Shown: one piece after another, positions 5,759 through 62,730 of the stretch
How the letters are laid out: each line of letters opens with the position of its first letter
Position numbering within the stretch: the stretch's first letter is position 1
Origin: Candidatus Poribacteria bacterium
GTDB lineage: Bacteria > Poribacteria > WGA-4E > WGA-3G
Reading direction: 5' to 3'
Assembly: GCA_965197475.1 (NCBI GenBank)
Contig: CBDANF010000003.1
Coordinates: 32,001-96,000 of the forward strand
Length of the DNA: 64,000 nucleotides
Notes under the pieces: generated by a model
The model's input: the letters and a program-made list of their open reading frames with translations, nothing else
Told to the model about the DNA's origin: nothing
Database searches by the model: none
Position numbers and translations under genes: made by a program

Positions 5759-5864
5759 GATATGTATAGTTTTTGCCAATTTCTATACATATCATGGACA
5801 ATATGTATACTTTCTATACATATCATAACCGATATGTATAGTTTTTGCCAATTTCTATACATAT
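5759..5864. repeat. array of three palindromic units built from ATATGTATAG/CTATACATAT half-sites
   Basis: GATATGTATAG-TTTTTGCCAATTT-CTATACATAT at 5759 and 5831 (identical), with a short-loop variant at 5801-5824. Confidence 0.9.
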
Positions 5865-17252: not shown

Positions 17253-17750
17253 TCAATTTGTATCTGTTGATTTATCCTTTTTTGGATTGGCGATCTCGAA
17301 CTGATGGATGGCGTGTCTATAGATAAGTACCATCTGGTTATTTACATTCATTGTAAAGTTATATTCATTGTATTCTACCGGTATGCCGTAAAGGATATGT
17401 CCGTTTCGGAGTGTCACCTTGACGTTTTTCTGTGCCAACTTGCGCATGGGGCGTTTCCCAATGATTTTCGGTCGCTTATGTGGGTCTTTATCGGTTCGGA
17501 GTTTTTCAGCTTCAACTTCTTTGTTTATCCGCAAAGCGTTTCCTAATTCATCCGCGGATTCTGGCATCAGGCAGAAGAGAATATCTACTTTGGGGAACGA
17601 GCCTGTAGATGTCCGGATCTCATATTTCTCTATTTCTGTGATATTTACCTTTTTGATACCGTCATAAGTTACGAGCAGCACGGGACCTTGAAACCTATTG
17701 AGCAAGGTTGTGGTTTCAAGGTTTTGTGTTGGACCGTTCTGTTGCGTCAT
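17253..17750 (-). CDS. protein with C-terminal Hfq/Sm-like domain
   Basis: VKVTLRNGHILYG...QMVLIYRHAI resembles the Hfq Sm1/Sm2 motifs (YKHAI); about 105-aa N-terminal extension. Confidence 0.55.
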   Translation of the reverse strand: MTQQNGPTQNLETTTLLNRFQGPVLLVTYDGIKKVNITEIEKYEIRTSTGSFPKVDILFCLMPESADELGNALRINKEVEAEKLRTDKDPHKRPKIIGKRPMRKLAQKNVKVTLRNGHILYGIPVEYNEYNFTMNVNNQMVLIYRHAIHQFEIANPKKDKSTDTN

Positions 17751-17947
17751 AGGATGGACCTCCAAAATAATAATTTTTGATATTTTACCGTAAATATAAC
17801 TTGATTTGTTAATCTTTGTTTAGACAGTCTACATAACTGATGGACTGCTTTGTGAAATGTCTGAGAGAACTGCACAAAAAGGTGCAAATTTTATACCCGA
17901 TTGCACGGAATTGGGCAGTGAGTTAGACTCACGTTATTACTTATAGT

Positions 17948-17976
17948 TTGTATCAAATGACCCCATGAGTTATACT
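17948..17976 (+). promoter_or_regulatory. sigma70 promoter of the DUF1670 operon overlapping the left IR
   Basis: TTGTAT-17 bp-TATACT; GGAGG RBS before ATG 18044. Confidence 0.6.
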
Positions 17977-18043
17977 ATTAGTATTCGTTAAACTAACGAG
18001 TAGATGTCCTCGGATCCCCGATAATCTATTCATGGAGGTCAAT

Positions 18044-18844
18044 ATGAACCGCAAGAAGGATACCGCTTACGGTATCACTCGGCTCGAATCCAAGAATGCC
18101 AGAGCCGCGATTATTCAGAAGATTTCAGCAGACTTTAATCTCATGCCTCTCGTTGCTGAAGCCTACTATAAACAGATTTCTACCTACTTTGAACAACATG
18201 CCGATGTGCAACTCACATCAGGGCAAATCTGCTACGAGGCAGTCGCCGCTGAGGAACCCGCAGGCAAACACATCGCTTTAGCGAAAAAAGTCTCCTGTCG
18301 ACTCAAACTCAACGATGTTGAAGCCGACCTTGAAGTTTTAGCGACTTATGGGCTCGCAGGACTCAGACGGCATCGGATCCTCCGATTGACCCAAGAAGCT
18401 TATGACCAAGAAGCCTTGCTGAGTTATGAGGATTTGGCGGTGTTATTAACCACCAGTCCTGCCACCGTCAAACGCGACATCCGAGCGTTGAAGCAGTCCG
18501 GCTATTTCGTGATGACGCGCGGGGCGAAACACGACATGGGCCCGGGACTGTCTCATAAGACGCAGATTCTCGAGCTGTACTTCAAAGCATACACCTTCAC
18601 CGAGATTGAGCAAAAGACGAACCACTCCGAACGGGCTGTCTACCGCTACTTGAGGGACTTCACACAAGTTGCCACGCTCCATCATCAAGGGTTCCCTAAC
18701 GCTCAGATACGCCTGATTTCTCATCTCTCTGACCGGTTGATACGCGAGTATCTCTCGCTGTTCAAGGAATATCAACACACCGATCGCATGACCCAACTCC
18801 TTCACCCAGAACCAGAGGACACAAAAAAGGAGGATCTCTCATGA
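18044..18844 (+). CDS. DUF1670-like protein A (multi-HTH)
   Basis: EAYDQEALLSYEDLAVLL..S.ATVKRDI, TRGAKHDMG..SHK, HSERAVYRY. Family recognised from memory of the motif. Confidence 0.8.
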   Translation: MNRKKDTAYGITRLESKNARAAIIQKISADFNLMPLVAEAYYKQISTYFEQHADVQLTSGQICYEAVAAEEPAGKHIALAKKVSCRLKLNDVEADLEVLATYGLAGLRRHRILRLTQEAYDQEALLSYEDLAVLLTTSPATVKRDIRALKQSGYFVMTRGAKHDMGPGLSHKTQILELYFKAYTFTEIEQKTNHSERAVYRYLRDFTQVATLHHQGFPNAQIRLISHLSDRLIREYLSLFKEYQHTDRMTQLLHPEPEDTKKEDLS

Positions 18845-19725
18845 GCAAACCTCTAACACGCACGCAAATCAACGAGAAGAAATTCAGACGCATCAACGAT
18901 AAATCCCTACGACAGTTGCTTATCCATCGCTTTCTCAATGACTACGGGTATGACAAAGGCGAAGTCACTGCCACCGCCATTGTTGATGATATTCTCAAGA
19001 CCGTTGAAGACTATTTCGTAATTACCCTCCCCTTGGAAAAACTCGCCACCGGTGATCAACTCCCAGATGAGCGTTTCCTAAGTTATGGACAACTCGTTTG
19101 GATGGCCGTCCCTATTGATGAACATCCAGAAAGAGGAAAGTCCATCGTCAAAACTCGGATGAAACCCATCATCCTGACCTACCTCGCCGCAGAGGATATT
19201 GAATCTTTTAGAAACGGTTTCACCTCCCGGCAATTGCGGATCAATCGCTTGGTCCGCTGGTGTCATCAAGCTTATGACCAAGGGGCATTATTGACACAAC
19301 TCGACTTGGCAGTTTTGCTCAATGTCTGCGATGCCGTTGTCTGTGATTATGTTAATGAATGGCAAAAAACCACTGGAGAACTCTTGCCCACCCGTGGCAA
19401 TATCCATGACTTATCGGGGGCTATTACCCATAAGAAAGAGATCATAACCCTCTATCTTCAAGGACATCTCACCCCCAGGATTGCCGCAAAGACCAAACAC
19501 TCTAAGGAGGCAGTTGATAGATACATTCGCGATTATGAGAGCGTCAAAGTCGTTCGCACCGCTACCACAGATATTGATAAAATCTCACAGATCACCCGAC
19601 TTTCTAAACGCGTTATCACTCAATATCTGGACCTGATTCCGCAGCCCCAACTCCAAGCCATAGATGCAAACCTTGCCAATTCAGACTCAAACGATGAAGC
19701 CACTCACCAAGGAGAAGCCCAATGA
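18841..19725 (+). CDS. DUF1670-like protein B (paralog of A, ATGA-coupled)
   Basis: QAYDQGALLTQLDLAVLL, PTRGNIHDLSG..THKKEII.LYLQG, HSKEAVDRYI. Confidence 0.8.
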   Translation: MSKPLTRTQINEKKFRRINDKSLRQLLIHRFLNDYGYDKGEVTATAIVDDILKTVEDYFVITLPLEKLATGDQLPDERFLSYGQLVWMAVPIDEHPERGKSIVKTRMKPIILTYLAAEDIESFRNGFTSRQLRINRLVRWCHQAYDQGALLTQLDLAVLLNVCDAVVCDYVNEWQKTTGELLPTRGNIHDLSGAITHKKEIITLYLQGHLTPRIAAKTKHSKEAVDRYIRDYESVKVVRTATTDIDKISQITRLSKRVITQYLDLIPQPQLQAIDANLANSDSNDEATHQGEAQ

Positions 19726-19792
19726 GACCCTAATCCTATGTTCCCGACGAACTTTACTTCGCAAAACCGGGGCAGGTGCCTTGAAAATATGG

Positions 19793-19821
19793 TTGACAAC
19801 CGCTACCGGTTTTGCTATACT
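19793..19821 (+). promoter_or_regulatory. strong outward-facing sigma70 promoter in the element right end
   Basis: TTGACA-17 bp-TATACT with extended -10 TGn. The -35 is flanked by IR GCAAAACCGG (19761) / CCGGTTTTGC (19806). Confidence 0.75.
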
Positions 19822-19827
19822 TTAGAC

Positions 19828-19954
19828 ACGTTTATCGCTAAACGCATCATTTCTCAAAGAGGATGCTCGCGATCCCAACGCAACCCACTCATCAACGATC
19901 GCTGGGAAGCCAATGAACATCAGCCTTCCAGCTATCCTATGGTCATTTGATACT
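19828..19954 (+). ncRNA. putative structured right-end RNA of the DUF1670 element
   Basis: Four consecutive potential stem-loops downstream of a near-consensus promoter; 147/151 nt identical in the mini copy. Confidence 0.5.
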
Positions 19955-22049
19955 ATTTTCTTATTAGCATTTTTCTGGTAGCAGTGAACTTGCCTACGGT
20001 TAACGTATAGAAATAGATTCCACTTGCCACAGGTTCACCCACATCATTTCTACCATTCCAATACGCCGCACGGCTGCGACTTTTATAGATACCAGCATCC
20101 TGATGTCCCAATACTAAGGTCTTAACTATTTTACCATTTGCAGCATAGATTGTCAAACTCACCTCAGCAGGTTTAGCAAGATGATAGGGTATCCACGTTT
20201 CTGGATTAAACGGATTCGGATAGTTTGCAAGCAGCTTTGTTTTTTCAGGAGTCAACGATGTTAGAAGCCTCTGGAGATTCGCTATGCCCTTTCGAAAAAC
20301 AATAGAACCGTCGTTTTCTATCTGCGCCTGCGTTATCCATGCTCGTATCATTGCGGGCATTAATTCTTCACTATTTATCACAACAAGATTCATATCAATG
20401 CCACGGTTGGTAATTAATGTCGGAGCAGATGCGGTTGTCTCACCTATATGCTGTGCAACAGCGATGAGGTCTAAGATGCCGATCGTCCCATCGCTGTCCA
20501 CGTCAGCTTGTGGCGTGACGGATGCATCTTTTCCCAAGTATTGTGCCACCTGCATTAGATCTAAAATGCTCACTTGCTCATCCTGATTTACATCCCAAGG
20601 CAAGAACACACGCTCTTCCACAGTGATAACAAAATCAGGAATGCTCAGAGAAATTGTTACCAAGTCACTTGAACCTGCATATAAGTTGGTAAGTGTTACT
20701 TGCGCTTCGCCAATCGCCTTTGCCATAAACGTTACCGACAGCAGCTTGCCTGTGCCGCTTACGCCGTCTCTGCTCAGACTTATCGCGCCGAGTCCGGTGA
20801 TTTTCCCTGCTGTGTTATCAATCGTGCTTTCAAGAAAGAATGTCGTTCTATCATCTTTCTTCAAGAAATCACCTTCGCTCACCTCAACTGCTTCAAGGGC
20901 AGCAGGGTCAAATACAATATTACATAACCATCCCGCTAAATCAGTGGTGTTTTCTACGTTGAGATGTAGTGTAAACGTATCATCAACGCGAACAGGGAGT
21001 TCATCTATAGAAAAAGAGAGATTGGCACTATTCACATCCGATACGGTGATCACAATCTCTGGAATACTCAGAGGAATTGCTACCGACTCGCTTGAATCTG
21101 CATATAGGTTGTTAAGCGTGACTTGTGCTTCGCCAATCGCCTTTGCTACAAATGTCACCGACAACAATCTGCCTGTGCCGCTTCCCCCGTCTCTGCTCCG
21201 GCTTACCGAGCCGAGTCCGGTGATTTTCCCTGCTGTGTTATCAATCGTGCTTTTGAGAAAGATGGTTGTTGCATCGCCTTCTTTCAAGAAATCGCCTTCG
21301 ACCACTTCAACAGCTTCAAACACATTCGGGTCAAACACAATATCACATTGCCAACTGGCTAAGTTGGTGATTTCATCTGCATTTAGATAAAGCGTAAATG
21401 TATCTCCGATGACAACAGATGTCGTATCAATGGAAAAGGAAAATCTGGGATCGCTCTCATCCAATTCGGGTTGCTCTTCCACAGTGATGACAATCTCTGG
21501 AATACTCAGAGTCAGAGGAATTATCTCTAAAACACCCGCCTCTGAGACATTACTCGAACCTGCCTTTAAGTTAGCAAGAGTGACCTGCGCTTCGCCAATC
21601 GCCTTTGCCACAAATGCTACCGACAACAATTTGCCTGTGCCACTAACACCACCTTTGGAAGTTCGTGCCGCGCCGAGATCAGTGATTTTCCCTGCTGTGT
21701 TATCAATTGCGCTTACAAGAAAGTGGGTTTTTCCACTACCTCCTTTCAAGAAGTCGCCTTCAACCACTTCAACTGCTTCAAGCACATTGGGGTCAAATAC
21801 TATATTACATTGCCATCCTGCTAAATCGGTGACGTTTTCTACATTCAGATGCAACGTAAACGTATTGTCAACGTGTACGGGTGTTTCATCTATAGAAAAG
21901 GAGAGTAGTGCTTCTTCAACAGCGGTAGGTTGATTATCGTCAGGGATGTTAACATTTTGTGCCACTATTGTAAGTGGAAACATCAAAAACAACATTGCAC
22001 AAATCCCAAAAGTGTAAACAAAATTATATTTTTCATTAACTATATCCAT
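19953..22049 (-). CDS. secreted protein: 3 cohesin-like repeats + dockerin/EF-hand + FlgD-Ig/T9SS-like C-terminal domain
   Basis: Three LAGWQ.NIVFDP..LEAVEV.EGDFL repeats; DVNQD/DVDSDG; NYPNPFNPETWIPY...TRKMLIRK. Confidence 0.85.
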   Translation of the reverse strand: MDIVNEKYNFVYTFGICAMLFLMFPLTIVAQNVNIPDDNQPTAVEEALLSFSIDETPVHVDNTFTLHLNVENVTDLAGWQCNIVFDPNVLEAVEVVEGDFLKGGSGKTHFLVSAIDNTAGKITDLGAARTSKGGVSGTGKLLSVAFVAKAIGEAQVTLANLKAGSSNVSEAGVLEIIPLTLSIPEIVITVEEQPELDESDPRFSFSIDTTSVVIGDTFTLYLNADEITNLASWQCDIVFDPNVFEAVEVVEGDFLKEGDATTIFLKSTIDNTAGKITGLGSVSRSRDGGSGTGRLLSVTFVAKAIGEAQVTLNNLYADSSESVAIPLSIPEIVITVSDVNSANLSFSIDELPVRVDDTFTLHLNVENTTDLAGWLCNIVFDPAALEAVEVSEGDFLKKDDRTTFFLESTIDNTAGKITGLGAISLSRDGVSGTGKLLSVTFMAKAIGEAQVTLTNLYAGSSDLVTISLSIPDFVITVEERVFLPWDVNQDEQVSILDLMQVAQYLGKDASVTPQADVDSDGTIGILDLIAVAQHIGETTASAPTLITNRGIDMNLVVINSEELMPAMIRAWITQAQIENDGSIVFRKGIANLQRLLTSLTPEKTKLLANYPNPFNPETWIPYHLAKPAEVSLTIYAANGKIVKTLVLGHQDAGIYKSRSRAAYWNGRNDVGEPVASGIYFYTLTVGKFTATRKMLIRK

Positions 22050-22378: not shown

Positions 22379-22452
<74 letters not shown>

Positions 22453-22462
22453 TATTGAACAC

Positions 22463-22535
22463 GGTGGATGTAGCTCAGGGGTAGAGTGCCTGACTGTGGA
22501 TCAGGAGGCCGTGGGTTCAATCCCCATCATCCACC
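22463..22535 (+). tRNA. tRNA-His(GTG)
   Basis: CCTGA-CTGTGGA-TCAGG anticodon arm; G-1:C73. Confidence 0.95.
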
Positions 22536-22545
22536 TTTTTAGGAT

Positions 22546-22618
22546 GCGTCCGTAGTTCAATGGATAGAGCAATAGCCTTCGGAGCTATAAGTTGGGGGTT
22601 CGAATCCCTCCGGACGCG
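22546..22618 (+). tRNA. tRNA-Arg(TCG)
   Basis: ATAGC-CTTCGGA-GCTAT anticodon arm. Confidence 0.92.
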
Positions 22619-22619
22619 G

Positions 22620-22692
22620 GTGCCGTTAGCTCAATTGGCAGAGCATCTGACTCTTAATCAGAGGGTTGAAGGTTCGATTCCTTCACGGCGCA
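22620..22692 (+). tRNA. tRNA-Lys(CTT)
   Basis: TCTGA-CTCTTAA-TCAGA anticodon arm. Confidence 0.95.
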
Positions 22693-55662: not shown

Positions 55663-58600
55663 GTGAAAGTATTGAAAAGTTTTATAACAATCAGTTTTCT
55701 ATTAATATTGATTTTGGGTTTTCAAAATGTTAATGCACAAGAGGATATCGCGCAACAGGCATACACGTTATTTGAGCAATACTGCTCGGGCTGTCATGGA
55801 GAATCTGGTGATTATAAGGATAGTCTCCTGCTTGATCGCACCGCGCTTGTTGATACTATGGTCGTTATTCCGGATGATCCAGAAAACTCAGAATTCTATA
55901 AGCGTCTACTTGGATCTACCGACAATGGTGCGCAAATGCCGTTCAATGCAGACCCGCTGTCACCTGATGCAATTGCCACAATTCGAAGCTGGATTGAAGC
56001 GGGGGCACCGGATTGGGTGTCCCAAGATGAGCCTGACCTCAACTTCATTACAACCGATACGATATTTGATACAATCAATACACATCTGGAAACGCTTGCA
56101 CTGTCTCAACGTCCCTATGCGCGATATTTTACATTGACACATCTTTACAATGCGGGTGAAAATCCAGAGACACTCAGGGACTATCGGATTGCGCTCTCAA
56201 AACTGGTAAATAGTCTCTCCTGGGGAGGTTTAGTTACCAATCCGAAACCGATTGACATGGAAGAGACAATCTTTTACATTGATCTGCAGCATTATAATTG
56301 GGATGTCGGAACTGACCGGTGGACGCAAATTGAGCAGGTATATCCGTATAATATTGAGTTTAATCCCGATACACAAGCAAGTTTGCTTGAAAAACTGACA
56401 AGTTTACGTACAAAAATGGAATGTCAAGTGCCGTTTGTCCATGTGGATTGGTTCCTTGCGACTGCGTCCTTACCACCACTTTACAACGACATCCTTGATC
56501 TTCCTGAGACAGCCCGTGAGTTGGAGGACAAACTTGGTGTAGATGTTGCCGGAAATATCCAAAATGCGGCAGGGACTCGTGTCTGGCGTGCGGGGTTCAA
56601 CGACTCTGGCGTGTCAAACCACAATCGGGTTGTTGAACGGCACACATCAAATAATGGTGCGTATTGGAAAAGCTACGACTTTGCAGGAAGTGCAGGAACA
56701 AAGAATATCTTTACATATCCGCTTTCATTCACACACGATGGTGGGGAGATTATCTTCAACCTACCGAACGGATTGCAGGCATATTATCTTGTAGATGCCG
56801 CAGGCAACAGGCTTGATGTGGCACCGACAGATATTGTTTCCAATCCTGCTGCGAATGATCCCGCTGTGTACAATGGTCTTTCATGCATCGGGTGCCATAC
56901 AAAAGGGATGAGGACATTTGAAGATCAGGTGCGTGCTGTTATTGAAAAGACTGAAAACCCGCCTTTTGACAAAGTGAAGGCGTTACGTCTCTATCCGGAA
57001 CAATCGATACTTGATGCACTGCTGCAAAAAGATACCGACAAATTCCAGCAGGCACTTGTAGAAATAGGCGGTCCGTTTGAAGATGATGAATCAAGAGATC
57101 AATTTCTTGAGGAATTTGAATATGAACCGGTCCAGCGGTTCCATGAAGCGTTTCATGGTACGGTTGACGCAGCACACGCTGCAGCCGCTGTTGGCTTAGA
57201 AACAGAGGAATTCCTTGACAAGATACTTGATAATACGCGTTTACAGGACTTAGGCTTATTAGTGCTGATAGGTGAAGACGGGAGCATAAAACGGGATGCG
57301 TGGACTTCTAACTTTGACGAAGTGATTTCTGTGCTATATCCCGATAAAGACGATCCTGAAATAGACCGTCCTCTGGATCCTCTCACCGGGGATGTTTATA
57401 TCCCTGATGTTAGTCTTCGAGCTGCAATTGAAGAGATACTCAATAAAGCACCCGGTGACACAATTACAGCAGCGGATATGGAGAAGGTGACGCGTATTGA
57501 AGCGGACAACAGAGGGATTAGCGACTTGACCGGACTTCAGTATGCAACAAAGCTGGAACGGATAGAATTTCGCCACAACTCAATATCAGACTTATCCCCG
57601 TTGGCGGGTTTAACCCAACTGAATAACATCAAGCTGCGCGGTAACCAGATAACAGACATTACCCCATTGGAAAACTTAAACCGAGTGGATTGGCTCGGGC
57701 TTGAAGGGAATCAGATAATCGATCTATCCCCACTGAAGAGCTTGACAAGATTGGAGGGCATAGGTATTTCTGGCAATCCGGTGGAGGACGTGTCACCTCT
57801 TTCGGAATTAAAGAGCTTAGAGCGGATAGACGCTTGGCGCACCCCCACAAAGGATTTCTCCGCGTTACATTCTTTACGGAGACTGTCCTGGATAGAATAT
57901 GGCAACGATAAATTGATAACTGAGCTACCATCTCTGGAAGGATTAGAATCTTTGACGCGGTTGGTAATTCACGGCTGTAGTATTTCAGATCTTTCCGCAC
58001 TGTCGGAATTAATGCAGTTGGAATGGTTAGAATTAGTAAACAACTCTATAGAAGGTGAAGCTCTCTCAGATCTGAAAAATCTAAAGAATTTGACAACGCT
58101 GAATCTCGATGCCAATCTCATATCGGATGTATCAGGGCTCTCAGAGTTAACCAATTTGGAGGTGTTGTATCTTGAAAACAATCTTATACAAGACGTATCC
58201 GCGCTCAGCAAGTTAAGCAACTTGGAACGGTTGGACCTTCGCAACAATGCGATATCCGACTTTTCACCTTTAGACAGTTTATCCGAGAATACTTTTGTGC
58301 GAATGGTCGGAAATCCGGGTTTTCCCGCTGGTGGTCCGAAAATAACGGGACCGTGGTTATGGGTGATCGTTCCAGGGGATAAATTGGCGGATGGCACAGA
58401 TTTTCTGGCTAAAGCAACTTCAGGTGCAGCTACAGAAATTAAGGTTGCTACCAACGGTGCCGCAGCCGGAAAAGCTGTTGGAGACAACACATGGACATGG
58501 CACACCCTTTCCGCTTTCGGTGGGAACAACATCAATGAAATGACAGAATCACTCGGTTGGGGAACAGGTCGAGAAATATATGATCATATCGTCTACGGCT

Positions 58601-59913
58601 CAGTCGTCCTGGATTCTCCGAGCGAACAGCAGACAAGGATGCTCGTCGGGAGCGATGATGCTGTCAAGGTTTGGCTCAACGGTGAGTTGGTTCATGAAGC
58701 CTACGGTACACGTGGAGCAGCTGACTACGCATATTTCTTTGATGTTACACTGAAACAAGGAAAAAATGTCTTGTTAGTTGCTGTTGACAACCATGGACAT
58801 GGGGGTTTTGCTGGTCATTTTGGTTTTGCAAGTGACGCGAAATATACGGTATTTCGTCCAGGTACCAGATTCTTATTTGCCACAGAGGCTACAAGTTTTG
58901 AGATTGATGATACGTTTACGCTGCATCTAAATACAGAAAATGTGAAAAATTTAGCTGGGTGGCAAGCCGACCTTGTGTTTAATCCTGATGTACTTGAGGC
59001 TATTGAGGTGAGCGAGGGTGATTTCCTGATGTCAGAGGACGAGGAAACCCGCTTTAATGGTGGCACAATTGATAACGAAACCGGTAGAATCACTGGTATA
59101 AATGCCTTACGATTCGACAGTGGGGTCAGTGGAAAAGGCACATTGTGTTCAGTGAGTTTCACTGTTAAGGGACCTGGCGAGTGCCGATTGACACTGGAAA
59201 ATTTTGAGGCAGGTTCCCGCGGCAGTCAGCCAATTCCTGCTACTCCACCAGAGTATGTCATCATTGTGGAAGGAGAGGAACCTACCAGACCGGCATGGGA
59301 TGTAGATCAGGATGGAGAAGTGGACATTTTTGATCTGCTTCAAGTGGCACAGTCCTTAGACACCGATGTATCTGTTAACCCGCAAGCTGACGTAAACGGC
59401 GATGGGTCTATTGATATCTTTGACCTCATCACTGTAGCACAGAATTTCGGTGAATCAACCGCATCCGCTCCTATCTCTGTCGCAATGGACACCGAAGAAC
59501 TCACGCCTGCGATGATACGGGCATGGATAAAACAGGCACAGGTTGAAGATGACGGTTCTATCGCTTTCCGACAAGGTATAGCAAATCTCCAGAAACTTTT
59601 GGAGAGTGTGACGGTGCCAAAGAAAACGGTGTTGCTTGCCAACTATCCGAATCCGTTCAATCCGGAGACGTGGATACCGTATCACCTTGCGAAACCTACG
59701 GCGGTCAATTTGACTATCTACGCTGCCAACGGAACAGTGATTAGGACATTGGTGTTAGGACATCAGGCTGCTGGCATTTATCAGAGTCGTGGTCGTGCAG
59801 CATATTGGGATGGGAAAAATGAGGTAGGCGAATCTGTCGCGAGCGGTGTCTATTTTTATACGTTCACTACAGGAGATTTCGCTGCTACCCGCAAAATGTT
59901 GTTGATGAAATAA
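55663..59913 (+). CDS. secreted multidomain protein: two CxxCH heme sites, internalin-like LRRs, beta-sandwich, cohesin, dockerin, FlgD/T9SS-like tail
   Basis: CSGCH, CIGCH, LxxLxLxxNxIxDLxPL repeats, GSDDAVKVWLNG, LAGWQADLVFNP, DVNGDG, NYPNPFNPETW. Ends AAA TAA. Confidence 0.85.
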   Translation: MKVLKSFITISFLLILILGFQNVNAQEDIAQQAYTLFEQYCSGCHGESGDYKDSLLLDRTALVDTMVVIPDDPENSEFYKRLLGSTDNGAQMPFNADPLSPDAIATIRSWIEAGAPDWVSQDEPDLNFITTDTIFDTINTHLETLALSQRPYARYFTLTHLYNAGENPETLRDYRIALSKLVNSLSWGGLVTNPKPIDMEETIFYIDLQHYNWDVGTDRWTQIEQVYPYNIEFNPDTQASLLEKLTSLRTKMECQVPFVHVDWFLATASLPPLYNDILDLPETARELEDKLGVDVAGNIQNAAGTRVWRAGFNDSGVSNHNRVVERHTSNNGAYWKSYDFAGSAGTKNIFTYPLSFTHDGGEIIFNLPNGLQAYYLVDAAGNRLDVAPTDIVSNPAANDPAVYNGLSCIGCHTKGMRTFEDQVRAVIEKTENPPFDKVKALRLYPEQSILDALLQKDTDKFQQALVEIGGPFEDDESRDQFLEEFEYEPVQRFHEAFHGTVDAAHAAAAVGLETEEFLDKILDNTRLQDLGLLVLIGEDGSIKRDAWTSNFDEVISVLYPDKDDPEIDRPLDPLTGDVYIPDVSLRAAIEEILNKAPGDTITAADMEKVTRIEADNRGISDLTGLQYATKLERIEFRHNSISDLSPLAGLTQLNNIKLRGNQITDITPLENLNRVDWLGLEGNQIIDLSPLKSLTRLEGIGISGNPVEDVSPLSELKSLERIDAWRTPTKDFSALHSLRRLSWIEYGNDKLITELPSLEGLESLTRLVIHGCSISDLSALSELMQLEWLELVNNSIEGEALSDLKNLKNLTTLNLDANLISDVSGLSELTNLEVLYLENNLIQDVSALSKLSNLERLDLRNNAISDFSPLDSLSENTFVRMVGNPGFPAGGPKITGPWLWVIVPGDKLADGTDFLAKATSGAATEIKVATNGAAAGKAVGDNTWTWHTLSAFGGNNINEMTESLGWGTGREIYDHIVYGSVVLDSPSEQQTRMLVGSDDAVKVWLNGELVHEAYGTRGAADYAYFFDVTLKQGKNVLLVAVDNHGHGGFAGHFGFASDAKYTVFRPGTRFLFATEATSFEIDDTFTLHLNTENVKNLAGWQADLVFNPDVLEAIEVSEGDFLMSEDEETRFNGGTIDNETGRITGINALRFDSGVSGKGTLCSVSFTVKGPGECRLTLENFEAGSRGSQPIPATPPEYVIIVEGEEPTRPAWDVDQDGEVDIFDLLQVAQSLDTDVSVNPQADVNGDGSIDIFDLITVAQNFGESTASAPISVAMDTEELTPAMIRAWIKQAQVEDDGSIAFRQGIANLQKLLESVTVPKKTVLLANYPNPFNPETWIPYHLAKPTAVNLTIYAANGTVIRTLVLGHQAAGIYQSRGRAAYWDGKNEVGESVASGVYFYTFTTGDFAATRKMLLMK

Positions 59914-59967
59914 TTTTATGGCGCGCTGACAAAGCGCGCCTAATCTTAAGATCAGGAGATAGAACGA

Positions 59968-62120
59968 ATGCTACGAACGAAATTATTCATATCTATATTT
60001 ACGCTTTTAACACTACTTTTCATCATTCCGTTGGGGCATTGGCACAAGGTGTTAACATTCCCGACCCGAACCTGCGGGCTACTATTGAAGAAGCACTCGG
60101 TAAAACACCGGGTGTCCTGATTACAGAAAATGAGATGGCAACGCTGGTAGACCTTGCAGCGCGTGACAAAGAGATTAAAGATTTAACAGGACTCGCGTTG
60201 GCAATAAATCTACAAGACCTCAACCTTCGCAACAACCTGATAGATGACATATCCGAACTGACAGGATTGGAGCGACTCAATAGTGTTGACTTGGGTGCAA
60301 ACGTTATAGAGGATATTTCACCGCTCAAGGGTAAAATCATCATGAGATCTCTAGTAATTGACAATACTTTCGTATCCAATCTTGAATCTTTGGAAGGATT
60401 AATCAACTTGGCATATCTAGATATTTCGCATAATGACTTGATTGAAGACCTATCCCCCCTTGGGAATTTAAAAAGGCTGAGGGAATTAGTGATGCATAAC
60501 CTGAAGGGATTGGCGATATCTAATAATAAAGCAGCTGACCTATCCCCCCTTGCAGGATTAATTAGTCTGATAAATTTTCACTCATTTGGCACCTCTATAT
60601 CAGACCTCACCCCCTTGGCAAGCCTACCTAAACTCAGGTTGATTAATATCCATAGCGCGGGAATAAGCGATCTTTCTCCGCTGGAGGGATTAACAGGTTT
60701 GAGAGAGCTATATCTCTTCAACAACAAAATAGAGAACATATCTCCGCTGGCAAGTTTAACAGGCTTGACCCGTTTGAGTCTAAGACATAACAAGGTCTCG
60801 GATGTATCTGCCCTTGCCGCGCTGCGTAATTTGAGATTTATAGATCTTGAAGACAATAAGATATCGGATTTTTCCAAATTGAATGTATTGCGTCTCGGCG
60901 GTACAACTATCCTTGGGAACAACAATCCTGGATTCATAATTGATGCCCCGAAAATCAAGGGTCCGTGGTTGTGGGTAATAGTACCAACTGAAGGAATGTC
61001 CGGGTCGGAAGCGGCAAAATCAAGCACAGATTTTTTGGCACAGGCAAGCGGTGGTACTATTACAGAAGAGATAGTTGCGACTCAAGGTGCTGTTGAAGGT
61101 GCTTCCGTTGGGAATAAGAAGTGGAAAGTTGGTGAACTTTCTCGAAGAGGTGGCAATAACATCAATGAACTTGTAAACGAGGTAGGACTCGGAATAGATG
61201 ATATAAATCATCATGTAGCATACGGTTCAATTATCTTGTCTTCTCCGCAGGAACAGCAGTCAAAGATGTTTGTCGGTAGTGGTGACGCTGTAAAGGTATG
61301 GCTCAACGGTGAATTAGTGCATAATAAAGCCGTAGATCGGGATGCCGACGATTATCAAGATACTGTTGGTGTTGTGCTGAAAAAGGGTGAAAATTTCTTG
61401 TTAGTTGCTGTCTATGAGGGCAAAGGGTGGTGGTCAGGTTTTTTTGGTCTTGACCCTGCCACGCAATTTACAGTCTCTCTACCGAATCCCAGGCTTCCGG
61501 TAGACCATCCAGCGGATGTGAATGGAGACGGAAAAGTGAGTATTCTTGATATGATTCAGGTAGCAAGGTCTTTTGGATTACTCAAACCTGGCGGTTCAAC
61601 TGCAGATGTAAACGGTGATGAAGTTGTTGACATCGACGACCTCATCTTTGTAGCACAACATATAGGCGATCTAACGGATAGTGATGCATCTGCCGCGTTC
61701 TCTCCCGCAATGATACAAGGTTGGATATCACTCGCCTGGGAGAGATACGATGGTTCAATCGAATTCCAGAAAGGAATAACGAACTTAGAAAATATCTTAA
61801 TATCTTTGAAGTCAAAGAAAACAGCAAAGAAAACAGTCCTATTTGCGAATTACCCTAACCCGTTTAATCCGGAGACATGGATACCTTACCAATTGGCAGC
61901 ACCTACTAAAGTAGTTTTGACTATCCATTCTGCAACGGGGTCAGTCGTGCGAACCTTGGCATTAGGATATCAGGCTGCGGGGGTATATAAAACTCGGAAC
62001 CGCGCTGCACACTGGGATGGGAAAAATGAGACCGGTGAATCTGTGGCGAGTGGAATCTATTTTTATACGCTAACAGCAGGAGATTTCACAGCAACGCGGA
62101 AGATGCTAATTCTTAAATAG
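59968..62120 (+). CDS. secreted LRR + dockerin + FlgD/T9SS-like tail protein; signal peptide out of frame
   Basis: AGGAG + ATG at 59968 encodes a signal peptide one base out of frame at a G4 run (60033-60036). The body has LRRs, DVNGDG and NYPNPFNPETW..TRKMLILK. Confidence 0.8.
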
Positions 62121-62556
62121 TATCAAATGACCATAGGATAGCTGGAAGGTTGATGTTTATTGGCTTCCCAGCGATCATTAATGAGTGGGTTGCGTTGGGA
62201 TCGCGAGCATCCTCTTTGAGAAATGATGCGTTTAGCGATAAACGTGTCTAAAGTATAGCAAAACCGGTAGTAGCAGATTTGTCCTGATGTCAGTCGCACA
62301 TCGGCGTGTTGATCAAAATAACTCGAAATCTGTTGATAGTAGGCTTCGGCAACGAGAGGCATCAGATTAAAGTCTGATGAAATCTTCTGAATAATAGCGG
62401 CTCTTGGATTCGGGTTCTCCGTTTGATACCGTAGGCGGTATCCATCTTGCGGTTCATATTGACCTCCATGAATAGAGTATCAGGGATCCGAGGACATCTA
62501 CTCGTTAGTTTAACCCATACTATTAGTTTGACTCATGGGGTCATTTGATACAAACT
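62119..62556 (-). mobile_element. 438-bp internally deleted (non-autonomous) copy of the DUF1670 element
   Basis: Same IRs (62120-62132, 62539-62551) and AT direct repeat (62117-18, 62557-58). Left end plus degraded orfA 5' part joined at about 62270 to the right end. Confidence 0.9.
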
Positions 62557-62730
62557 ATGAAGTCATATTGAGTAAAACATAAGGATGTGTTAAAATAGGG
62601 AAAGAGAAGGGTGGACTTTATGTCCCATTCTTTCTACTTCAGACACCTATTTGCTTTGAGTTCTTAGCTCTTACTCGCTATAAGTTCAATATTAAACAGC
62701 AGCGATGAATGGAGGTTGAAGAGAATTCCG

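Follow-up and report, generated by a model that had tools for sequence, protein, structure and literature searches.

A 2014-bp insertion-sequence-like element (17943-19956, + strand) with two overlapping open reading frames (ORFs), orfA and orfB, was analysed in a stretch of 64,000 nt from the genome of a sponge symbiont, a Candidatus Poribacteria bacterium (contig CBDANF010000003.1, positions 32,001 to 96,000 of the forward strand). This stretch is called the window, and all coordinates refer to it. The right-end non-coding region of the element (19761-19954) appears to consist of an extended -10 promoter close to consensus, a leader of about 135 nt and a terminal repeat of about 30 nt. According to the favoured reading, which is held tentatively at a probability of about 0.4, the promoter points out of the element, would drive orfA and orfB across the junction of a circular or tandem form, and would send a transcript antisense into the host gene when the element is integrated. 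Outward transcription itself would be the selected property. A preliminary description, made from the letters of the window alone, had proposed that the same region encodes a promoter-driven, structured RNA, possibly extended by a guide taken from the flanking DNA.

The outward promoter and the element ends

The element, its borders and its promoters were delimited as follows.

17941-17942, no strand assigned: left copy of the duplicated TT; TT precedes ATAG in 18 of 18 left flanks read
17943-17962, + strand: left terminal inverted repeat ATAG[TTTG]TATCAAATGACC, conserved in all homologs aligned
17948-17976, + strand: candidate inward promoter of orfA, TTGTAT-17-TATACT, with the -35 hexamer inside the left repeat; inferred by reading the sequence
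18032-18844, + strand: orfA, 270 amino acids (aa), with profile matches to DUF1670 (PF07900, E 1e-60) and HTH_11
18841-19725, + strand: orfB, 294 aa, DUF1670 (E 1.5e-61), a helix-turn-helix protein by profile match and structure model
19793-19821, + strand: outward promoter with -35 TTGACA (19793-19798), a 17-nt spacer containing TG (19813-14) and -10 TATACT (19816-19821); identified by scan and conservation
19927-19956, + strand: right terminal repeat region with the core GGTCATTTGATACTAT at 19941-56; the last 30 nt are 80-100% identical in 19 homologs
19957-19958, no strand assigned: right copy of the duplicated TT; TT follows CTAT in 20 of 20 right ends
19953-22049, - strand: host gene (cohesin, dockerin and type IX secretion system (T9SS) C-terminal sorting domain), convergent with the element

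The outward promoter was found exactly as first described, as TTGACA-17-TATACT with an extended -10. Scanning of the interval 17700-20300 returned 7 promoter-like sites versus 3.8 +/- 1.9 in shuffled sequences, and it is by conservation that the outward site stands above chance. TGnTATACT, a -35 hexamer resembling TTGACA, TTGGCA or TTGATA, and the 17-nt spacing were kept in 27 aligned loci (71-98% orfB identity), with a weaker -35 in a few of them. The sequence between the hexamers varied among the homologs, while the -35, the spacing, the TG and the -10 stayed together, which is the signature of a used promoter. TGnTATACT was also present at each of the 45 right tips found among 50 loci of named Poribacteria assemblies, a set that overlaps with the 27 loci. 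The site is taken here as a functional promoter on the strength of its motif and conservation. No terminator-like site was detected by the scan on the + strand after 19821, and read-through past the tip is therefore expected.

Outward promoter-like sites were also found elsewhere in the family, at other distances from the tip. Locus L083 carries TTGACA-17-TATCAT at -82, loci L099 and L107 carry TTTACA-16-TATAGT at -41, and in a class of elements with a short leader the promoter is located at -131. The recurrence of such sites at differing distances points to outward transcription as the selected property; a promoter at -41, as in L099 and L107, leaves no room for an RNA scaffold.

The candidate promoter of orfA and orfB, which overlaps the left repeat, looks weak. 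It was below the threshold of the scan and matched the consensus poorly; its -10 is kept as TAnACT in the Poribacteria homologs. The terminal inverted repeats measure 13-20 bp, and each is bordered by TT. A single TT is present in the orthologous empty site of the congener G104 (L175), where TTACTT is followed directly by CAAAAT. Thus, TT is either duplicated upon insertion or is a 2-bp crossover core common to both partners. A 2-bp crossover or duplication via a form with joined ends is consistent with TT occurring at both junctions and once in the empty site. The weak orfA promoter, taken together with TT at both junctions, favours the view that outward transcription acts on joined ends. From an integrated copy, the transcript would enter the convergent T9SS-substrate gene on the antisense strand. 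If the element were excised as a circle or arranged as a head-to-tail pair, transcription would pass over the TT junction to the left end, raising the expression of orfA and orfB.

Leader sequence, stems and deletion derivatives

Leader identity was determined relative to the window copy over the 105 nt that follow the -10 and precede the last 30 nt, with 4-fold codon sites as the neutral comparison. In the class with 91-95% protein identity, leaders were 76-88% identical versus 55-78% at 4-fold sites. For leaders of a second type, termed X, the corresponding values were 54-63% and 27-43%. By this comparison, the leader is under purifying selection. A promoter-driven right-end RNA, as proposed at the outset, is thereby supported indirectly, by the promoter at 45 of 45 tips, the selection on the leader and the lack of a terminator-like site after the promoter.

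Leaders fall into three classes, two of 134-136 nt (main and X type) and one of 102-103 nt. About 33 nt are missing from the short class, which removes the 3' arm from stem 2 and the 5' arm from stem 3; in place of stem 1, this class has an ATGTGC/GCACAT hairpin that is invariant except for its loop. The stems of the window copy are listed below.

19829-19844, + strand: stem 1, 5'-proximal hairpin CGTTTA/TAAACG, 3 of 6 pairs changed on both sides
19844-19866, + strand: stem 2, GCATC/GATGC with inner CTC/GAG; outer pairs invariant
19869-19902, + strand: stem 3, GCGATC/GATCGC around a 22-nt loop; present here, helix not conserved
19901-19932, + strand: stem 4, imperfect inverted repeat GCTGGGAAGC/GCCTTCCAGC around a conserved AATAAACATCAG block, with an A.C mismatch and a G.U pair

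All four stems that had been described are present in the window copy. Stem 4 is imperfect, and neighbouring stems share bases as written (stems 1 and 2 at 19844, stems 3 and 4 at 19901-02). Covariation was analysed in 21 leaders of the main class. In stem 1, compensatory changes were found in three of the six pairs (five C-G to U-A and five U-A to G-C changes), and the preference for the transcript strand was weak (106 versus 99 of 126 cells paired). The inner helix of stem 2 contained one pair with 4 compensated and 8 unpaired cells. None of the six pairs of stem 3 was compensated, and two of them were unpaired in 10-11 of the 21 sequences. None of the seven stacked pairs of stem 4 showed changes on both sides, and one position was never paired; the isolated innermost pair (19910-19923), which the software counted as a separate helix, had 2 compensated cells. 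The covariation expected of a structured RNA was thus found in stem 1 and was absent from stem 3 and from the stacked part of stem 4. RNAalifold, applied to 28 leaders, returned 3 pairs, all within the inverted repeat. Wobble pairs indicated no clear preference for the transcript strand.

The fold of 19826-19954 had a free energy of -28.4 kcal/mol (z-score -2.07; 8 of 200 shuffles were as good), and in this minimum-energy fold ATCGC pairs with GCGAT instead of forming stems 1 and 3. Across the 21 leaders, the four-stem structure scored 0.140 versus 0.112 in shuffles (1 of 500 as high), and nearly all of the score came from stem 1. The alternative built on the minimum-energy fold (ATCGC/GCGAT plus CGTT/AACG) was rejected with a score of 0.068 versus 0.069 (293 of 500 shuffles as high). 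Three Rfam matches with E values of 2.8-9.8, far below the gathering scores, were treated as chance. A small ORF across the region (19738-19950, 70 aa) was discarded as coding sequence, as its start precedes the promoter and the homologs differ by indels that are not codon-like. On the aligned sequences, a 5'-proximal stem-loop is supported and a four-stem scaffold is not. The leader would open with this stem-loop and continue with conserved sequence blocks.

These blocks look like sequence motifs rather than helices. An invariant CACTCAT in the right end (19885-19891) is the reverse complement of ATGAGT. The left end (17965-18000) contains one or two direct repeats resembling ATGAGTTATACT, with ATGAGT once or twice, and the X class tends to have ATGAGC/GCTCAT at both ends. 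These repeats of the left and right end may be protein-binding sites. Distant relatives also have a GCC(A/T)AATAAAAC block at about 40 nt from the tip, there without the flanking stem.

The leader was also retained in deletion derivatives of the element, one of which is located in the window.

62117-62558, - strand: mini copy, a 442-nt deletion derivative in a paralogous gene tail, with its junction at a GCTAC microhomology (18235/19803)

The mini copy keeps the -10 and the whole leader and is without the -35. Its right-end block matched the window copy at 149 of 153 positions and copy L006 at 153 of 153. Using the best match over the 19 full copies, the orfA remnant was identical at 181 of 201 positions and the left end at 81 of 88. 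The contrast between right-end block and orfA remnant that had been noted for this copy therefore holds. A second derivative, recovered from a DNA run, joins 17977 to 19805 and likewise keeps the -10 and the whole leader, not the -35. Solo right-end relics were observed still at their targets (L073, L074, L064, L067 and L053, in G021, G023 and G033). As they keep between about 20 and about 170 nt of the end, they are uninformative on requirements in cis.

Target choice and the encoded proteins

Copies of the element are inserted in the 3' ends of genes with a T9SS C-terminal sorting domain, whose products end in ...RKM(L/V)I(L/R)K. On the strand of the host gene, the insertion point follows the first two bases of the last lysine codon. 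The final AAA and the TAG of the host gene are completed by bases of the element, which supplies A and TAG, so that the host protein still ends in lysine followed by a stop. The genome contains 19 full-length copies (L001-L019; one internally deleted) and the mini copy, with 93-100% identity; contigs of about 2.0 kb representing the element are numerous in public assemblies. T9SS-type tails were found in 39 ORFs of at least 150 aa, 16 of which carry the element. At all 20 right ends, element and host gene are convergent. The 20 occupied sites have a degenerate pattern in common, in which T1, T2, A7 and T17 are invariant and T8, A10, C12, A13, T16 and C19 nearly so. Written out, the tail target reads TT N4 AT N A N CAT Y TT N CG.

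The 100% identity of L001-L003 in the presence of unlike flanks was considered as proof of recent jumps. This argument was weakened by the G104 empty site, according to which flanks were swapped by recombination, and the comparison of flanks across all 20 sites is used in its place. In that empty site, the left flank of the window copy (17900-17943 compared) is contiguous with the gene tail beside copy L003, from which it follows that recombination between identical copies rearranged the chromosome. Two more paralogous genes with leucine-rich-repeat-like repeats and T9SS tails were observed at 57566-62119; the target site is empty in one of the tails (ending at 59912) and occupied by the mini copy in the second.

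Both tip and target are kept well outside the range of the Poribacteria leader. Metagenome relatives with 56-64% orfB identity have the tip GGTCATWTGAYACTAT, the TT and T9SS-like tails. The same combination occurs in assemblies labelled Bacteroidetes, Ignavibacteria, KSB1, Cloacimonadota, Calditrichota, Zixibacteria, Gemmatimonadota and others. Among loci from these other phyla, the tip was found in 26 of 29 and T9SS-like tails in about 21 of 24 readable flanks. In seven of the loci, the stretch from orfB to the tip comprises no more than 66 nt (16-66 nt). The target is consequently older than the Poribacteria leader. Elements with a 102-103-nt leader are multi-copy and were located in T9SS tails in 8 of 8 cases. 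Two of the 20 sites in the genome share 12-13 of 24 nt with the best other flank, in runs of 4-5 nt. Comparison of the non-coding region of ten elements with target words, on either strand, gave longest matches of 6-8 nt (shuffle p 0.13-0.98) and no conserved positions.

One clade has switched its target and is inserted in the loop of a repetitive extragenic palindrome (REP)-like palindrome, GAAACCGAGTTTT[TT]CTTCAAAACTCGGTTTC. The clade comprises the loci L054-L077 (G023, G021, G033 and G036), and its site is often non-coding. In G023, all ten copies with an X-type leader are in the palindrome; the two remaining right tips of that genome belong to truncated relics located in T9SS tails. Support for the clade in the orfB tree is high (100/96), and its sister, L038, combines a near-identical leader with a T9SS tail. 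The target switch is heritable with the element and, as judged from these loci, does not track the leader. Taken alone, it is compatible with a memory of the flank; four other observations weigh against a guide. A guide inside the leader, similar to a bridge RNA, was rejected as well. The loop words ATCAAC and AACATC had matched the consensus flank by eye, and ATCAAC/ATTAAT had seemed to track the flanks in the genome. Across genomes, the targets show no correspondence with loop variants such as ATTAGG and AGAAAC, and the shared words have the length found in shuffles. Collectively, the data are evidence against an RNA guide: target choice appears to be a family-wide property that is not made by the right-end RNA. 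The suggestion that a flank-derived guide explains the targeting is not supported, given the same tip and target in elements with ends of 16-66 nt, the 8 of 8 cases in the 102-nt class, the unlike flanks and the lack of a TnpB-like nuclease fold. The alternatives that the preliminary description had itself named, a junction-driving promoter and an antisense transcript, are favoured here.

The target is most simply thought to be read by the two helix-turn-helix DUF1670 proteins. Both ORFs matched PF07900 and helix-turn-helix families only; no RuvC-type TnpB or IscB nuclease and no DEDD transposase was recognised in them. An AlphaFold model of the orfB product (38-sequence alignment, predicted local distance difference test score 85.3) has a small N-terminal alpha/beta part, after which come helix-turn-helix units. 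When this model was searched against the PDB with Foldseek, no match at E <= 0.001 was obtained, and the best rows were winged-helix repressors and Pax paired domains (E 0.3-0.6). Searches of NCBIfam, PDB sequences and the ESM Atlas yielded nothing beyond helix-turn-helix folds. Conserved R/H/K/H/Y residues were considered as a recombinase active site and rejected, since they are located in helices of the helix-turn-helix units of the model. There is no enzyme of the TnpB or DEDD kind in the element for an RNA to serve. As is general for insertion sequences, terminal repeats, a short duplication and many near-identical copies were found; a transposase or recombinase was recognised neither with Pfam and NCBIfam nor with PDB sequences, Foldseek or the ESM Atlas.

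DUF1670 comprises about 1000 clusters at 50% identity, and PF07900 is present in 43 of 176 genomes of the phylum. Pairs of orfA and orfB were found in 25 of the 30 PF07900 loci fetched, orfA alone in one, and truncated, split or broken forms in four. Fused forms with three DUF1670 stretches each were also observed (P0134, P0135, P0140 and P0145; 930-952 aa). A full-text literature search retrieved no paper naming DUF1670 or PF07900.

Alternative explanations and known systems

Outward or junction promoters are known from the IS3/IS911, IS30, IS21 and IS110/IS492 families, which move via circles or tandem dimers. By motif and conservation, the outward-directed promoter that is expected of such systems appears to be present here. 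The further similarities are a strong promoter in the end at the 3' side of the transposase genes, a weak resident promoter overlapping the other repeat, and a short dinucleotide at both junctions. By analogy, the right-end region works most like these promoters. Several points weigh against this assignment. Classical junction promoters are split between the two ends, with the -35 in one and the -10 in the other, whereas here the whole promoter lies within one end, at a depth of 135-164 nt, and a conserved leader follows it. Since it is complete within the right end, it would also fire in integrated copies. The scan score of 11/12, with the TG, refers to a consensus that may differ from that of Poribacteria. 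Joined ends, as seen in the known systems, were not encountered: the junction of right end to left end was absent from the contigs of 4 runs, and the head-to-tail junction pattern was unmatched in 185,579 species genomes, although rare circles would be missed in both cases. The element, 19800-19958 included, is fully covered by contigs from three RNA libraries. Contigs reveal neither transcript starts nor strand and the depth parallels that of the DNA run, so that this coverage speaks neither for nor against the promoter. Finally, a plain promoter does not explain the conservation of about 105 nt of leader, nor does it explain two independent deletion derivatives that retain everything from about 19803-19805 to the tip.

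An explanation that requires no circle, and that is considered unlikely but still to be taken seriously, gives the promoter an insulator or antisense role. Insertion severs the gene from its own terminator, so that transcription of the host gene would continue into the element, on the strand opposite to orfB and orfA. The outward promoter, being strong, would oppose this transcription by collision or duplex RNA, or would lower the expression of the T9SS substrate. The convergent orientation in 20 of 20 right ends and the lack of a terminator after the promoter agree with this. In addition, distant relatives (L085, L087, L092 and L093) have, at the place of the Poribacteria promoter between orfB and the tip, a strong hairpin followed by a T-run. 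Pairing in stem 2 and in its inner helix is no worse on the minus strand (84 and 59 versus 79 and 53 cells). However, the X clade keeps the promoter although it resides in intergenic palindromes and not in gene tails. The conservation of the leader sequence is left unexplained. In another explanation, the conserved blocks are subterminal binding sites of the DUF1670 proteins, acting purely as DNA, with the promoter as a by-product or as a regulator of nothing important. In favour of this are the conservation of sequence rather than pairing, the occurrence of CACTCAT and ATGAGT (ATGAGC/GCTCAT in the X class) at opposite ends and the recurrence of the GCC(A/T)AATAAAAC block in distant relatives. 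The motif matches extend over 6-7 nt only, and promoter elements that stay together in 45 of 45 tips around a varying spacer speak for a promoter in use. Such a purely DNA-level role is judged improbable.

Two explanations assign a function to the RNA itself. In the first, the leader RNA, ending in an RNA copy of the right repeat, would bind the DUF1670 proteins in cis or trans for synapsis or catalysis, loosely as in IS110/IS1111, and would not carry a guide from the flank. The arrangement, in which the last gene of a site-specific element is followed by a conserved leader under its own promoter, resembles the IS1111 layout (10.1101/2024.04.26.591405). The leader is more conserved than silent sites and stem 1 covaries. 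The mini copy and the second derivative keep the whole block from the -10 on. The proteins show no catalytic domain, which implies that something is missing from the picture. Against these points, no consensus structure was obtained for 28 leaders, stems 3 and 4 did not covary, an active class manages without 33 nt of the middle, relatives in which the non-coding DNA measures 16-66 nt perform the same task, and no target-matching words beyond chance were found. This possibility is regarded as doubtful, if slightly less so than the DNA-level one. It can be extended to a speculation that is judged improbable: that recombination machinery of a new kind requires the leader RNA as a cofactor, which the DUF1670 helix-turn-helix proteins would use for synapsis of the ends or for licensing or crossover at TT. 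Such an RNA would include the terminal repeat in RNA form and, owing to read-through, the junction as well. Where the non-coding ends of a lineage are short, this task would fall to the 3' part of the orfB mRNA. Very improbable is the flank guide, in which read-through adds the flank to a right-end scaffold that steers the DUF1670 proteins to paralogous tails, in the manner of TnpB omega RNAs. It could draw on the outward promoter without a terminator before the flank, on the paralogous nature of the targets, and on the near-identical leaders with different target families (L038 and the X clade), as a flank memory would allow. On the other hand, target and tip are kept across phyla that are without the Poribacteria leader, and the dissimilar flanks of two of the 20 sites were described above. 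The target switch maps to one supported orfB clade and is explained equally well by an encoded determinant. Moreover, stems 3 and 4 are unconserved, and neither a nuclease or guide-using fold nor an Rfam match was found.

The comparison with other known systems followed the same lines. Omega RNAs of TnpB and IscB in the IS200/IS605 family overlap the right end, take their guide from the right-end flank and serve a RuvC nuclease. The RNA proposed here would also overlap the right end and could continue into the flank. In contrast to the omega systems, the DUF1670 element encodes no RuvC nuclease, and its flanks are too dissimilar to serve as guides. As to a conserved scaffold, the leader gave no Rfam match, covaries in stem 1 alone and yielded no RNAalifold consensus. 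IS200/IS605 elements have subterminal hairpins and make no duplication, whereas terminal inverted repeats and a TT duplication were found here. Tn7 is inserted beside a conserved gene 3' end (attTn7) under the direction of the protein TnsD. Like Tn7, the element is aimed at conserved C-terminal coding sequence, leaves the protein intact and has a fixed orientation. Unlike Tn7, it uses a multi-copy paralogous tail as target, is inserted inside the last codon, and has two small helix-turn-helix proteins only and no TnsABC-like machinery. The IS1111/IS110 elements with seeker or bridge RNAs, as outlined in 10.1101/2024.04.26.591405, are likewise site-specific, with a sizeable non-coding region downstream of the gene and a 2-bp junction repeat. 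The short core common to donor junction and target would be TT in the present case. The DEDD (RuvC-like) transposase is absent here, no non-coding segments match the top or bottom target strand beyond chance, and the leader does not change with the target.

Three further features of the window were recorded. Just left of the element, a 170-aa ORF on the - strand (17253-17765) gave a weak match to the Hfq domain (E 6e-5, below the Pfam cut-off). Three tRNA-like 51-nt direct repeats (repeat-scan family D8) at 22400-22690 are probably a tRNA gene cluster. Tandem exact 34-nt direct repeats with internal palindromes (GATATGTATAG...CTATACATAT) are located at 5759-5864.

As outward promoters of insertion sequences are known, the right-end feature in its favoured reading, as a promoter directed at a junction or into the host gene, is not of a new kind. 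More unusual is its carrier, a family across the Fibrobacteres-Chlorobi-Bacteroidetes (FCB) group of phyla that encodes DUF1670 proteins only, is specific for T9SS tails and is unnamed in Pfam and NCBI beyond 'DUF1670'. The family is widespread in T9SS-bearing phyla and is inserted with single-base precision in the last codon of secretion-signal tails. With the right-end RNA probably not the aiming device, the search for this device narrows to the two helix-turn-helix proteins and the conserved subterminal blocks, and the conserved promoter and leader are left with a testable role.

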